Shown here piece by piece: positions 39,824-62,315 of a stretch of DNA of 64,000 bases (positions within the stretch are counted from its first letter, which is position 1; each line of letters begins with the position of its first letter). Position numbers and translations under genes: made by a program. Below the pieces are notes generated by a model. The model was given only the letters and a program-made list of their open reading frames with translations, was not told where the DNA came from and made no database searches. Source of the DNA: a virus; IMG/VR virus record IMGVR_UViG_3300023174_000074, positions 1-64,000 of that record; one strand, 5' to 3'.

Positions 39824-40618
39824 ATGGCAGGCATAAAAACTTTTTATAAACCAGGAGAAGCAATTAAATGGACCAAGGAGGAACTATTTAATCACGGATA
39901 TGTTGTTAAAACAGAAAGGTGGCAGGGAATAGAATCACCTGATGATATGTGGGAAACAATGAATCATTCATTTCAGTTTTTTATGCCACACACAATAGAA
40001 GAGTTGGCAACTGAGATTAGACCCAATCTTCCTTGGGCAGATGAACATTTTGAGGAAAGAGTTGGCGGACAACCTTTGAATCCCCCGCCTTCTCATGTTA
40101 GATGGCCTTTTGCCCAGAAGAACAATTCTCAATTTGGTGGTCATGAACAATTTTCGCACACATACCCAGAAAGAATCTGGTCTAGGTTTGCTGGTGATAA
40201 ATTCGAACATATAGATGAACCACGCAAAGGGATCAGATACGAATATGGTGATTTTGGAGATGTGCTGGATCTGATGGAAAGGGAACCTTTCACAAGACAA
40301 GCATTTTTACCAATTTGGTTTCCTGAAGATACAGGAACAGTTCACGGAGAACGTGTACCTTGTACCTTGGGATATCAGTTTATTAGAAGAGGCAATTGGC
40401 TTCATGTGACATATTACATAAGATCGTGTGATTATATAAGACACTTTAGAGACGATGTTTATATGGCATGCAGAAAGCTTATGTGGTTGTTAGACAACCT
40501 AAAACAAAGGGATCCAGAAAGGTGGTCTGATGTTACCCCGGGATACTTTGTTATGCACATAACATCTTTACATTGTTTTAATAGCGAAAGGGGCATATTG
40601 AAACAGTCTAAGATGTAA
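39824..40618 (+). CDS. thymidylate-synthase-fold enzyme, probable dCMP hydroxymethylase/methylase
   Basis: TRQA..PIW, VPCT, YYIRSCDYIRHFRDD (Asp at the specificity position), SLH. Confidence 0.75.
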   Translation: MAGIKTFYKPGEAIKWTKEELFNHGYVVKTERWQGIESPDDMWETMNHSFQFFMPHTIEELATEIRPNLPWADEHFEERVGGQPLNPPPSHVRWPFAQKNNSQFGGHEQFSHTYPERIWSRFAGDKFEHIDEPRKGIRYEYGDFGDVLDLMEREPFTRQAFLPIWFPEDTGTVHGERVPCTLGYQFIRRGNWLHVTYYIRSCDYIRHFRDDVYMACRKLMWLLDNLKQRDPERWSDVTPGYFVMHITSLHCFNSERGILKQSKM

Positions 40619-58877: not shown

Positions 58878-59108
58878 ATGGCAGATTTTTCAAAACAATG
58901 GTGTGAAATTAATGATACTAGTATGCCTAGTGATTTCGACATTTTAGAAGAGGCAAATAATATTAAACCTAATCATTATATTCCTATGATATGTGAAGGA
59001 TATGGTTTTGTAGCAATAGGTAAAGATGAGCATGATGATATTATATTAGCATTTAAAGATAATGAAGGTAATATTAAATGGGAAACTTATAACAGCGTTA
59101 TTAAATAA
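58878..59108 (+). CDS. hypothetical protein
   Basis: MADFSKQW...ICEGYG. Confidence 0.6.
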   Translation: MADFSKQWCEINDTSMPSDFDILEEANNIKPNHYIPMICEGYGFVAIGKDEHDDIILAFKDNEGNIKWETYNSVIK

Positions 59109-59118
59109 AACAAAAATT

Positions 59119-59541
59119 ATGGACAATAGAAAAACATCAATGCAAGAATTGTTTGATAATTTACAAGCAATTGATATATCTGTACCAAATGGAGTTAAAC
59201 AAATATTCATTGAAAAAGAAAAACAACAAATAGAAGATGCTTTTTACTCAGGTTATGAGGATAGAGATTTGTTTAAACATGGTGATGATTACTACAATAA
59301 AATGTATGAAAAAAATGGTTGGCAAGGTATTATATTTCTTGGAGAAGTTGATGATGTAAAAATATACTATGATAGTTATCATCCTGACCAAACGCTGACA
59401 GTTGAATTAAATGAAGATAAAACGGAAATGGTTTATATCATTAGTCCGTATGATGATATTGAAATATTTGATGGAATTAAAAAAAATATTATTGTATCTG
59501 AAAAGCCAACTACATTGGAAAAAATAATTACAAATGAATAA
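59119..59541 (+). CDS. hypothetical protein (KTAMQ family), paralog of 57876..58295
   Basis: Near-identical DNA to 57876-58290. Confidence 0.7.
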   Translation: MDNRKTSMQELFDNLQAIDISVPNGVKQIFIEKEKQQIEDAFYSGYEDRDLFKHGDDYYNKMYEKNGWQGIIFLGEVDDVKIYYDSYHPDQTLTVELNEDKTEMVYIISPYDDIEIFDGIKKNIIVSEKPTTLEKIITNE

Positions 59542-59755
59542 TCTAGATAACAAACTACCCTGTCAAAAAGAATATGTTTTTGACAACAGAGAAGTTAAAA
59601 CCTCATTACCCGGGGCTGAACTATCTGATGTTGATAGTTTGAAATATTTTTTTCAAAAATACATATCTTCAGTTGAAAATACAAAACCAAGTCAAAGTAT
59701 GGCGAATATACTGAAAGCATGGATTGATATTATACAGCAAAAATCAAATAAATAA
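59534..59755 (+). CDS. hypothetical protein
   Basis: ORF in operon. Confidence 0.5.
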   Translation: MNNLDNKLPCQKEYVFDNREVKTSLPGAELSDVDSLKYFFQKYISSVENTKPSQSMANILKAWIDIIQQKSNK

Positions 59756-59757
59756 AA

Positions 59758-60399
59758 ATGAATAAATTAGATAAAGATTATTGTAACCTACTTCAAGATA
59801 TCTTGGATAATGGTGTACAAAAAGAAACTAGAAATGGTGGTACTTTGAGTGTATTTGGAAGACAAATACGTCACAAAATGAGCGATGGGTTTCCGTTGCT
59901 AACTTCAAAACACATAAAGTTCGATTTGATCGTTTCCGAGCTCATTTGGTTCCTTCAAGGTCGAACTGATTTAAGATGGTTACTGGAGCAAGGAAATACT
60001 ATCTGGGTGGGGGACGCTCACAAGCGATTTATATTAGCAACGTCTGAAGATGAATATCAAGAGCCGACAGAAGATGCAAGAAAAAGATTTATTGATAAAA
60101 TCAAAAATGATAAAGAATTTAGTGATAGATTCGGGGATCTTGGTCCAATTTACGGATTTCAGTGGAGAAATTGGGGTAAAGATTTTAAACAAGTATTAAA
60201 TGAAACGGGAGATAAGGTTTATGATATAACAACAACTGGTATAGACCAAATCGCAAACCTAATCCACGACCTTAAAACAAATCCAGACTCAAGACGATTA
60301 ATGGTTAATGCTTGGAACGTTGCAGATTTGCCGGTTACTGATTATAAAACAGACGACGAACTCTATCAAGATTACTTAAAAGATATAGGAAAATCATAA
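59758..60399 (+). CDS. thyA: thymidylate synthase N-terminal fragment with 22-aa added tail
   Basis: TRNGGTLSVFG, FPLLT, ELIWFL.G, DLGPIYGFQWR, DQI, PDSRRLMVNAWN; stops before PPCH. Confidence 0.9.
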   Translation: MNKLDKDYCNLLQDILDNGVQKETRNGGTLSVFGRQIRHKMSDGFPLLTSKHIKFDLIVSELIWFLQGRTDLRWLLEQGNTIWVGDAHKRFILATSEDEYQEPTEDARKRFIDKIKNDKEFSDRFGDLGPIYGFQWRNWGKDFKQVLNETGDKVYDITTTGIDQIANLIHDLKTNPDSRRLMVNAWNVADLPVTDYKTDDELYQDYLKDIGKS

Positions 60400-60448
60400 A
60401 AACTATTACCCTCCTTAGATATATAAATAAAAAGGAGGTAATACCATT

Positions 60449-61339
60449 ATGATTATATATAAGACAACAAATTTAGTGAACGGTAAGATTTACATAGGAC
60501 AGGACAAATATAACAATCCAAGATATCTTGGATCTGGAAAAATTTTACATCTTGCTTTTAAAAAATATAGCGTTGAAAACTTTATCAAAGAAATAATTGA
60601 AGAGTGTGAATCAAAAGAACACTTGGATGAAAGAGAAAGGTATTGGATAAACTTTTACAAGTCAACTGATAGAAATATTGGATATAATATAGCGTTAGGT
60701 GGAAATGGCGGGGACACTATTTCAAATCATCCGGATAAAGATTTAATTAGACAAAAACATTCAGAATGGATGCAAGAAAACAATCCAACCAGAGGTAGAA
60801 AGAGGAGTGAAGATGAAATGGAAAGATGGAAAGATTCTTTTGTTGGAAAATATAAAGGTGAAAACAGTCTAAACTTTGGAAAAAAACATAATGGTGATTC
60901 AAAGATTAAAATGTCAGAAGCTAGAAAAAAATGGCATGAAACCTTAACAGAAGAAGAAAGAAATAGCATTAGCGATAAAATAAGCAAATTAAATAAAGGT
61001 AAAGAAGGTTATTGGAAAGGAAAAGATAATACTAATCATTCCGACTGGATGAAACAAAATAACCCGATGAAAGGTAGAACCCACACTGATGAAATTAAGC
61101 AAAGAATATCTGATGCTAATAAAAAACCTAAGTCTGATGAAACGAAAAGAAAACTTAGTGAAGCTAACAAAGGTAAAAAACCAGGAAACATAGTTAAGGT
61201 TGAAATAGGGGGAATTGTTTATGAAAGTCTAACAGAAGCTTCTATTAAAACTGAGATAAATTTATCAACATTAAGAAATCGAATTAAATCAAAAAATGTT
61301 AAATACTTAAATTACAAAATATATGAATCAGCTAAGTAA
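60449..61339 (+). CDS. GIY-YIG homing endonuclease with NUMOD3 repeats
   Basis: IIYKTTNLVNGKIYIGQ, YLGSG, RERYWI, GYNI..GG.GG; NUMOD3 and terminal NUMOD1/HTH-like region. Confidence 0.9.
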   Translation: MIIYKTTNLVNGKIYIGQDKYNNPRYLGSGKILHLAFKKYSVENFIKEIIEECESKEHLDERERYWINFYKSTDRNIGYNIALGGNGGDTISNHPDKDLIRQKHSEWMQENNPTRGRKRSEDEMERWKDSFVGKYKGENSLNFGKKHNGDSKIKMSEARKKWHETLTEEERNSISDKISKLNKGKEGYWKGKDNTNHSDWMKQNNPMKGRTHTDEIKQRISDANKKPKSDETKRKLSEANKGKKPGNIVKVEIGGIVYESLTEASIKTEINLSTLRNRIKSKNVKYLNYKIYESAK

Positions 61340-62042
61340 AGAAGAGTTTTTAGAAAAACTAAAAACTGACAAAGATTTTAATTTCAGATATGGAAGAAAA
61401 CATATTACAGAAGGAAAAATGGTACTTCCTCCTTGTCACTATGGATTTCAAGTTTATACAAGAGAAATGTCAGTTCAAGAAAGACAGAAGTATGATAATC
61501 ATTTTGATAGTTTAATTGGTGAATACCCAGACCATCATATTACATTAGATAAAAGAGGAGTACCTCGTAGAGCAATCTCGTTAATGTGGAATCAACGAAG
61601 TTGTGATGTGGGTCTCGGCATCCCCTTTAATATAGCATCTTACGGGTTGTTATTAGAGATAATCGCTAAAGCAGTTAATATGGTTCCTGATGAATTGATT
61701 GGAAATTTAGGTGACACACACTTATACTTAAACCATATTGAACAAGCAAAGGAGCAGATTGGTAGAGAGTTGAGTTTGGAAGAAAGGTTATCTTTAGTTA
61801 AAAATAATGTAATGAGTTTTGATGAATTATCCAAAGCAAATTATGATGAATTTTTTAAAAAGAATAATATACCGAACAGAACTAGAGAACCATACCCATT
61901 ACCAACATTAAAAATTGTGGGTTACCCTGAAGAATATAAGCATCCAAATGACGAACGACTATTTGAAGAGTTTGACATATCTGACTTTCAACTTGAAAAT
62001 TACCAATCACACTCAACTATTAAAATGCCTTTATCAAACTAA
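61323..62042 (+). CDS. thyA: thymidylate synthase C-terminal fragment with 31-aa added head
   Basis: MVLPPCHYGFQ, QRSCDVGLGIPFNIASY, GDTHLYLNH, IKMPLSN. Confidence 0.9.
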   Translation: MNQLSKEEFLEKLKTDKDFNFRYGRKHITEGKMVLPPCHYGFQVYTREMSVQERQKYDNHFDSLIGEYPDHHITLDKRGVPRRAISLMWNQRSCDVGLGIPFNIASYGLLLEIIAKAVNMVPDELIGNLGDTHLYLNHIEQAKEQIGRELSLEERLSLVKNNVMSFDELSKANYDEFFKKNNIPNRTREPYPLPTLKIVGYPEEYKHPNDERLFEEFDISDFQLENYQSHSTIKMPLSN

Positions 62043-62055
62043 AAAAATATAAATT

Positions 62056-62292
62056 ATGGAAAACTACAAATCGGATTACTACAATCCAGAAACACTTAAA
62101 AAATCAGAAGTTGAAACTAAAATACCTGTTAGTTTAGTTAATAAGGTTAAGCAAACACTAGATAAATTGGAAGGCTACATGATAACACCAACGATGGTTA
62201 ATCCCAAATATGATTCAGTAACATTCGGGATCATGGATATGACTAATAGAACATTAAAATATAGAGTTTCAATCACACCAAATTACCTTTAA
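62056..62292 (+). CDS. hypothetical protein
   Basis: ORF in operon. Confidence 0.5.
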   Translation: MENYKSDYYNPETLKKSEVETKIPVSLVNKVKQTLDKLEGYMITPTMVNPKYDSVTFGIMDMTNRTLKYRVSITPNYL

Positions 62293-62315
62293 GTAATTAA
62301 TACATATATATAACC

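Follow-up and report, generated by a model that had tools for sequence, protein, structure and literature searches.

A phage thymidylate synthase gene divided by a GIY-YIG endonuclease cassette, with conserved tails that may help its two halves to reassemble

The stretch of DNA analysed here, hereafter the window, comprises 64,000 nucleotides (nt) and corresponds to positions 1 to 64,000 of the IMG/VR virus record IMGVR_UViG_3300023174_000074. It carries a thymidylate synthase gene (thyA; protein ThyA) that is divided in two by a free-standing GIY-YIG homing endonuclease gene, each fragment having gained a short tail at the break. Neither an intron nor an intein was detected at this locus, the tails are selected as protein, and related tails recur in other phages and at a second break site of the enzyme. 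We consider it probable that the two fragments assemble non-covalently into a two-chain ThyA and that the tails borne by the inserted cassette aid this assembly.

Anatomy of the divided thyA locus

Three open reading frames (ORFs) of the + strand represent the N-fragment, the endonuclease and the C-fragment. The ORFs and the Pfam matches both agree with an earlier note on this DNA, in which a GIY-YIG endonuclease was said to break thyA between AWNVADL and KMVLPPCH. The features of the locus are the following:

59758-60399, + strand: thyA N-fragment (thyA-N), 213 amino acids (aa), ending in AWNVADL, then PVTDYKTDDELYQDYLKDIGKS and a stop codon
59758-60330, + strand: native part of thyA-N, residues 1-191, ending in NPDSRRLMVNAWNVADL (from the ORF and PF00303 positions 1-139)
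60331-60399, + strand: N-tail PVTDYKTDDELYQDYLKDIGKS and stop codon, 22 aa after AWNVADL
60331-61418, + strand: whole inserted cassette, with N-tail, stop codon, hairpin, endonuclease gene, start codon and C-tail
60392-60454, + strand: predicted RNA hairpin sequestering the AAGGAGG and AUG of the endonuclease gene by pairing
60449-61339, + strand: free-standing homing endonuclease gene, 296 aa, with GIY-YIG, NUMOD3 and I-TevI-like DNA-binding domains
61323-62042, + strand: thyA C-fragment (thyA-C), 239 aa, starting with MNQLSKEEFLEKLKTDKDFNFRYGRKHITEG, then KMVLPPCH
61323-61418, + strand: C-tail MNQLSKEEFLEKLKTDKDFNFRYGRKHITEGK, 31-32 aa before MVLPPCH, read as a helix copy and a linker
61419-62042, + strand: native part of thyA-C, from MVLPPCH to PLSN and the stop codon (Pfam positions 140-266)

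Residues 6-192 of thyA-N match positions 1-139 of the Pfam family Thymidylat_synt (PF00303, E-value 1.4e-44), and thyA-C, from its residue 32, matches positions 140-245 (E-value 3.5e-36) and 223-265. Combined, the two fragments cover the family from end to end, and the cut is clean since they meet at positions 139/140 with zero profile positions lost. In ThyA, the Cys of the PPCH motif is catalytic and DSRR is the phosphate-binding motif. Both are kept, as NPDSRR at residues 175-180 of thyA-N and LPPCH at residues 35-39 of thyA-C, the catalytic Cys being residue 38 of the latter (codon 61434-61436). Beside the DSRR motif, the native part of thyA-N contains small-domain helices predicted at residues 84-95, 105-117 and 119-125. 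The N-tail is acidic (6 D/E for 3 K) with a predicted helix at residues 199-209, and the C-tail is composed of two predicted helices (residues 6-15 and 17-23) and of the basic linker RYGRKHITEGK. The endonuclease ORF begins 49 nt after thyA-N and its end overlaps the start of thyA-C by 17 nt. Contigs of public lake-water DNA from two runs span the succession tail-endonuclease-tail with 0 differences (60288-61463 and 60364-61460), and one of the two runs may be the source sample. The break is not an assembly artefact.

The endonuclease displays a NUMOD3 motif (PF07460, E-value 9e-17), a GIY-YIG domain (PF01541, 23.1 bits for a cut-off of 22.6) and a match to the DNA-binding domain I-TevI_DNA-bd (PF20987) that, at 25.1 bits, is under its cut-off of 27. 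Its residues 227-283 match the structure of intron-associated endonuclease 1 (PDB 1i3j, E-value 5.5e-6). By this combination of catalytic domain, NUMOD linker and DNA-binding domain, the protein belongs to the GIY-YIG homing endonucleases of the I-TevI kind; it is 69% identical to the endonuclease found at the same position in locus L007. A free-standing homing endonuclease gene thus lies inside a coding region where no intron or intein is detected, which is the arrangement described as 'genes in pieces'. A strong ribosome-binding site, AAGGAGG, precedes this gene (60430-60440), and no site of the AAGGAGG type was seen upstream of either thyA fragment start (59758 and 61323). The hairpin 60392-60454 (-16.9 kcal/mol, z = -3.75; one of 200 shuffles folds equally well) probably represses translation of the endonuclease, by analogy with Aeromonas phage Aeh1, where an RNA structure represses the endonuclease MobE (PMC3045599, in its available text). 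No + strand terminator was found within 60400-61320, and promoter-like sites between the two fragments show no excess (18, against 14.9 +/- 4.5 in shuffles).

The limits of the cassette are given by unsplit alleles. Contigs from the same lake metagenomes join 60330 to 61418 through GATTC, which reads L-DS-M (two runs), and another one joins 60330 to 61417 through GATC, which reads L-DQ-M (one run); past 60330 these contigs depart from the window sequence. These contigs were matched at a likeness of 85%, their short sides measuring 30-48 nt, and are therefore attributed to related phages. From these joins, the cassette extends from 60331 to 61418 and replaces 6 nt (the DS or DQ codons). Alleles devoid of the cassette are present in the same runs as the window. 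The tails are missing from unsplit homologues, both in the alignment to unsplit ThyA and in the L-DS-M and L-DQ-M alleles.

Among named phages, the closest relatives are vB_FspM_immuto of Flavobacterium (MW353175, MW353176), with an unsplit ThyA of 423 aa (AWNVGELDQMVLPPCH). This protein belongs to the same subfamily, has a long small-domain insert as well, and is 50% identical to the N-fragment and 53% to the C-fragment. Another unsplit thyA (436 aa) is found in L023, the locus of a close relative. Unlike the window, immuto and L023 code for a continuous ThyA of 423-436 aa reading ...ELDQMVLPPCH, with neither tails nor endonuclease gene. L023 (2178-2974) displays 92% nt identity with the window from 59104 to 59894. 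This similarity covers the upstream genes and the first ~137 nt of thyA, then collapses, leaving one island of 56 nt that is 98% identical (window 60241-60296). This pattern gives the window's thyA locus the look of a recombinant patch, such as co-conversion around a homing event would leave.

Selection on the tails and the tests for an intron or an intein

The ratio of nonsynonymous to synonymous differences (pN/pS) was pooled over 91 pairs, not independent of each other, from 14 distinct loci. The C-tail (29 codons) has a pS of 0.509, a pN of 0.097 and a ratio of 0.19, and the N-tail (17 codons) a pS of 0.593, a pN of 0.084 and a ratio of 0.14. The references are 0.23 for LPPCH and the 10 following codons, and 0.135 for AWNxxxL. 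With ratios of 0.14-0.19 and a pS of 0.5-0.6, the flanks of the endonuclease gene evolve as protein and not as RNA. These values support the view that both tails are translated and under a purifying selection as tight as that around the catalytic Cys.

The thymidylate synthase gene td of phage T4 is a classic intron host, and its group I intron, located downstream of the catalytic Cys, carries I-TevI; the break in the window is upstream of this Cys. Like td, the window combines a phage thymidylate synthase gene with an inserted GIY-YIG endonuclease whose DNA-binding domain is of the I-TevI type; unlike td, it shows no detectable ribozyme, and selection acts at the protein level on the translated flanks of the endonuclease gene. 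It is very improbable that a cryptic self-splicing intron, of group I or of another kind, extends over about 60331-61418 with the tails as its read-through, in the manner of T4 td. The I-TevI-like domain speaks in its favour, Rfam models may miss introns with a large ORF in a loop, and the available text of PMC8351571 names the T4 thymidylate synthase as an intron host. However, the Rfam scan of 59500-62300 retrieved no intron family at an E-value up to 10, only 7 chance-level matches, and that of 10 related loci gave no match at the gathering score. The near-saturated synonymous change of the tails, at such low pN/pS, is unlike an untranslated ribozyme, which would have only ~115 nt ahead of the endonuclease ORF and 79 nt behind it. 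In addition, loci L003, L006 and L086 replace the sequence between the tails wholesale while the tails are unchanged, and the position of the thyA-C start codon is conserved among relatives. An intron was rejected since Rfam gave no intron family in the window region or in the 10 related loci and the tails are selected as protein.

No intein or Hint family was detected by the Pfam scan of the fragments and of the middle ORF. Inteins begin with Cys or Ser, end with His-Asn and are followed by Cys, Ser or Thr, and a minimal intein is larger than the present tails. The insert starts with Pro and ends with Gly-Lys, the next residue being Met. An intein was rejected on the lack of a Pfam match, on the wrong junction residues and on tails of merely 22 and 32 aa; without intein motifs and with such small segments, covalent ligation is not expected. 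The Rfam, Pfam and junction data thus agree with the statement of the earlier note that neither element is present. A degenerate split intein that would ligate the halves by trans-splicing is highly improbable. In its favour, endonuclease-associated split inteins occur in metagenomes (PMC2677866), and such an origin was raised as possible for the tails of the Aeh1 ribonucleotide reductase NrdA (PMC3045599), as far as the available texts of both papers go. The fractured genes of PMC2677866 resemble the window in that an endonuclease gene parts the two pieces and the new termini carry short extra segments through which they associate, but the added segments of the window are too small and devoid of intein motifs. 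The C-tail, moreover, is homologous to a ThyA helix (see below) and not to an intein block.

Occurrence, relocation and origin of the tails

Conservation of the tails extends far beyond this phage. Of the 120 best matches of the C-fragment, 75 carry the C-tail (two being the window's own), 25 are unsplit, eight are broken in a loop of the small domain, five are broken before IDQI, six are truncated calls and the last is protein P0064. Among the 120 best matches of the N-fragment, 76 end in the N-tail, 43 continue unsplit and one is P0171. A profile of the tail only has recovered 55 cluster representatives (E-value up to 1e-3) from 1.84 billion proteins, 46 of them with the helix motif within the first 50 residues. 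From the 113 loci that were classed, 71 are unsplit, 16 are of the window type, 19 of the second break type, two of the first type, three are cut and two are without Cys motif; as 31 of the 113 come from a tail-seeded search, these class counts are not frequencies. P0171 is an unsplit ThyA in which the N-tail is fused in frame to the linker of the C-tail, so that the insert is tolerated within a single chain. An unsplit thyA with the same insert had been proposed as a thing to look for among relatives, and P0171 carries a part of it, not the whole insert.

The sequence between the tails is variable. A GIY-YIG gene separates the fragments in the window, L007, L013, L083, L088, L090, L092 and L094, and an HNH gene in L087 and L089. 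L003 has three small ORFs, the first of which (134 aa), the sole one scanned, matches 0 Pfam families. In L006 and L084 a 58-aa ORF lies between the fragments and the N-tail continues into a remnant of the endonuclease C-terminus. In L086 ~100 nt without ORF are left. The split therefore outlives the endonuclease, the tails being kept with GIY-YIG, HNH, small ORFs or none between them.

These data also bear on whether the divided gene is a dead remnant, thymidylate being supplied by the host or by another phage gene. This is highly unlikely: the halves and tails are under purifying selection in 14 distinct loci, and the arrangement is intact in 75 and 76 of the 120 best C- and N-fragment matches, with the catalytic motifs kept. 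In its favour are the incompleteness of the record, a distant ThyA-like ORF at 39824-40618 of the window, and P0064, which resembles a deletion product without the enzyme middle. The window is part of a virus record of 126.8 kb, with an estimated completeness of 46%; this available part of the genome yielded no ThyX.

The ORF 39824-40618 (+ strand, 264 aa) has a sub-threshold match to PF00303 at the catalytic-Cys region (18.7 bits for a cut-off of 24.3) and weak matches to solved ThyA (E-value 0.0016) and to CMP 5-hydroxymethylase (E-value 0.12). Its product may be a distant pyrimidine-modifying enzyme of the ThyA fold. In P0064 (335 aa), the N-part ending in DGDAYQAYLKECEKLKK continues directly, in a single chain, into the C-tail EEFLEKLKTDRDFNNRYGRKHITEGKMVLPPCH; the middle of the enzyme, from GPIYG to AWN, is lacking. 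By the look of this protein, a deletion joined its native helix region to the tail copy; otherwise, the middle piece is encoded elsewhere.

The tails are also present at other places of the enzyme. The second break is located after GWRNWG and before IDQI, with the related tails ...SDDKLYEDYLKKVKEK and M..HEDGTPFTKEEFLQKLKTDKEFNDEFGNKG, and an HNH gene lies in between in most loci whose upstream side is covered. Of the 19 loci of this type, 17 are among the 31 tail-seeded ones. L086 holds both breaks and encodes three pieces: one of 160 aa, a middle one of 83 aa that starts with the C-tail and ends with the N-tail, and a last one. The loop between the two small-domain helices is the place of a third kind of break, without duplicated tails, in L030, L079, L118, L119, L124, L168 and L192/L193. 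The C-fragments of far more distant ThyAs, recovered by the tail-only profile (P0251, P0255, P0257, P0268, P0269 and P0281), carry the tail as well, with 13-17 of 19 residues of the tail helix identical to the window for a core identity of 31-65%. In L094 both tails are present, yet the N-fragment, read by eye, shows no match to the helix motif, so that these tails would be imported and not copied from their own domain.

Other proteins and ORFs are related to this part of the enzyme. P0253 (97 aa) begins with a helix similar to the C-tail, followed by the native ..SDAYKNYAKY.. and by the native second helix, which points to one more break site, immediately ahead of the first helix of the small domain. 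The small proteins P0265, P0286, P0287 and P0295 and the one encoded at 1900-2277 of L126, directly upstream of thyA, have no Pfam match and contain the same helix-loop-helix motif, ..Y..Y.. then ..EEFI.K.KTD.EF..KWG; several of them end in ...IPTKLITI.YN...IE.YE. The small-domain helix pair of ThyA seems also to occur as a module on its own. Directly downstream of thyA-C, the window has an ORF of 78 aa (62056-62292, + strand, MENYKSDYYNPET...) with close homologues in L095 (1523-1759) and in L106 and L112 (2722-2958). In the loci of the second break, its homologues sit between the HNH gene and the C-fragment. To judge from these positions, this small ORF relocates within the thyA locus.

The origin of the C-tail could be traced. 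Among 61 unsplit ThyAs searched with the profile of the C-tail helix, 56 gave a match, and in 45 of these the profile locates the native helix, ending exactly at G.LGPIYG. The median score is 11.5 bits, against maxima of 3.3 bits for reversed and 2.1 bits for shuffled sequences. The predicted helices 6-15 and 17-23 of the tail mirror the native helices 105-117 and 119-125. Thus, the likeness of the C-tail to the N-fragment's own insert, which the earlier note had remarked, exceeds chance, and the profile supports the C-tail as a copy of a native helix, the last one of the ThyA small domain. An optional extension of the C-tail, H.EDGTPFTKEEF, resembles the start of the loop-break C-fragments (HPEGRPYTKEEF), which fits a cassette born at the loop break and moved later with its flanks.

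The N-tail gives scores at noise level against the same 61 unsplit ThyAs (median -2.2 bits, reversed maximum 1.4). In the 49 with a match, 14 have their best match on the YxNYLK helix and 21 end six residues before G.LGPIYG, and the latter are read as the TDDEF part of the other helix. With seven fragments of the first break type, the best match falls on YQAYL(K) in six, at 2.3-2.5 bits in four; for shuffles, the 95th percentile is 0.6 and the maximum 4.0. The YQDYLK of the N-tail resembles the YQAYLK that ends the loop-break N-fragments, with scores near noise. With phmmer, the N-tail aligns gap-free and about equally well to the strand after the catalytic Cys in solved ThyAs of 315-316 aa. 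The two tails had been taken for a split duplicate of the enzyme's own small domain. The helix copy in the C-tail stands, and the N-tail as the other half of a duplicated domain is only weakly supported. Likewise, the homology of the C-tail to the small domain holds, but the occurrence of the tails in divergent ThyAs and in L094 speaks for a module that was imported, more than for a duplication of the small domain of this very protein.

Predicted assembly of the two chains and comparison with known systems

The following scenario is proposed, with good support from the comparative evidence. A mobile cassette would have inserted into the thyA loop just ahead of the catalytic cysteine, bringing an N-tail that ends at a stop codon, a GIY-YIG gene under translational repression, and a C-tail with a start codon. 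The halves would be made separately from one transcript and would restore an active enzyme by non-covalent association, presumably as an (N.C)2 dimer. Both helical tails, the acidic N-tail and the C-tail with its basic linker, would join the interface of the N- and C-fragments and offset the broken chain, and by this compensation the insertion would be harmless to the phage. The last small-domain helix of ThyA would be the source of the C-tail. Both tails would move with the endonuclease cassette among sites and thyA lineages, and would remain after loss of the endonuclease.

Structure prediction of both chains together, a check proposed in the earlier note, places the tails in the predicted interface. 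The complex of the N- and C-fragments scored 0.89, 0.90 and 0.88, the best of three controls 0.00; of 80 solved complexes, 58 attain this mark, as do 2 of 110 mismatched pairs, counts that are approximate since our own alignments were used. At least 92% of the contacts agree between runs, with a predicted local distance difference test (pLDDT) of the partner of at least 79. The confident interface is composed, on one hand, of residues 190-195, 197, 199-200, 202-203, 205-207 and 209-210 of thyA-N and, on the other hand, of residues 3-4, 6, 9-10, 13 and 23-37 of thyA-C, the whole linker included. The hydrophobic faces of both tails take part in it (L202, Y203, Y206 and L207; F9, L10 and L13).

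It is unlikely, though worth weighing, that the halves join by the native ThyA interface alone and that the tails are conserved for another reason, for instance because they dimerise the N.C heterodimers, shape the active-site loop, keep the free halves soluble, couple translation or protect the site from being cut again. The interface of the complex model is mostly native ThyA core, to which all of the 25 lowest-error pairs belong, and the break adjoins the DSRR and Cys elements. In Aeh1 the NrdA fragments deprived of their tails still form heterodimers, the tails being needed to dimerise these a/b heterodimers (PMC3045599, available text). Against this, the hydrophobic faces of both tail helices lie in the confident interface, and the use of the same tail pair at two break sites is more in line with a generic association module than with a role tied to one site.

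Several points weigh against tail-aided assembly as we propose it. Because the Aeh1 tails are dispensable for the heterodimer, a simple clasp may be wrong here too. The AlphaFold models of the single fragments are of poor quality, with a mean pLDDT of 55.5 and 62.6, which is no surprise for half-folds; their tails are at moderate or low confidence, and they were used for secondary structure alone. The complex model gives interface residues without their pairings, and tail-to-tail contact is not resolved in it; its pass for the core may reflect memory of the abundant solved ThyA structures. To these are added the non-independence of the 91 pairs and the incomplete record, in the remainder of which a second thymidylate synthase gene is possible.

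The closest known system is the nrdA-a/mobE/nrdA-b locus of Aeh1, studied by Crona et al. 2010 (PMC3045599), who build on Friedrich et al. 2007; what follows on Aeh1 is limited to the available text of this paper. The tails carried by NrdA-a and by NrdA-b arose with the insertion and are essential for activity, and the authors predicted similar tails on other fragmented genes. As in the window, a free-standing homing endonuclease splits an essential enzyme of nucleotide metabolism between active-site elements, with no intron or intein, and the downstream fragment begins inside the endonuclease ORF. Both loci likewise have an RNA structure over the translation signals of the endonuclease, and new tails of opposite charge. 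The window differs in associating ThyA with a GIY-YIG endonuclease, Aeh1 in associating NrdA with an HNH one (MobE). The Aeh1 tails are described as unique sequences of unknown origin, whereas the C-tail of the window is demonstrably copied from a helix in the family of the host enzyme. Unlike those of Aeh1, the thyA tails are conserved as a pair in dozens of divergent phages, serve again at a second site as well as in a three-piece enzyme, and survive endonuclease loss. The function of the tails is proven for NrdA and putative for thyA.

No description of a split thyA with tails was found in the literature searched, mostly outside subscription journals and in the available text of the articles (including PMC6715854, PMC8351571, PMC8670742 and PMC5107563). 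Within this literature, the statement of the earlier note that it knew of no such thymidylate synthase holds for thyA, but tail-aided reassembly itself is in print for Aeh1 NrdA (PMC3045599). What is new here is the host enzyme, the traceable origin of one tail, the deep conservation, the reuse at several sites, the stacking into three pieces and the persistence without endonuclease.

We also put forward, with more reserve and as somewhat less likely than not, that the tails are a self-sufficient, portable pair of heterodimerising helices from the ThyA small domain, which would travel with homing endonuclease genes and let them break the essential enzyme at various surface loops harmlessly. 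They may be testable as generic association tags in split-protein engineering. For annotation, gene calling in metagenomes reports such fragments as separate short 'thymidylate synthase' genes, so that intact thyA is undercounted by the pipelines.

Up to now, the sole worked-out case of an endonuclease-split enzyme rescued by tails was the NrdA of Aeh1, in a single phage; thyA displays a conserved, widespread and reusable module. The unsplit, three-piece, endonuclease-lost and re-fused forms, together with the three break sites, constitute a natural series in which it can be examined how a broken enzyme stays functional. These loci bear on the way in which homing endonucleases colonise essential genes without intron or intein. 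If the tails do form such a portable heterodimerising module, non-covalent splinting at the protein level, stackable into three-piece enzymes, would represent a third route, beside introns and inteins, to a phenotypically silent homing endonuclease.

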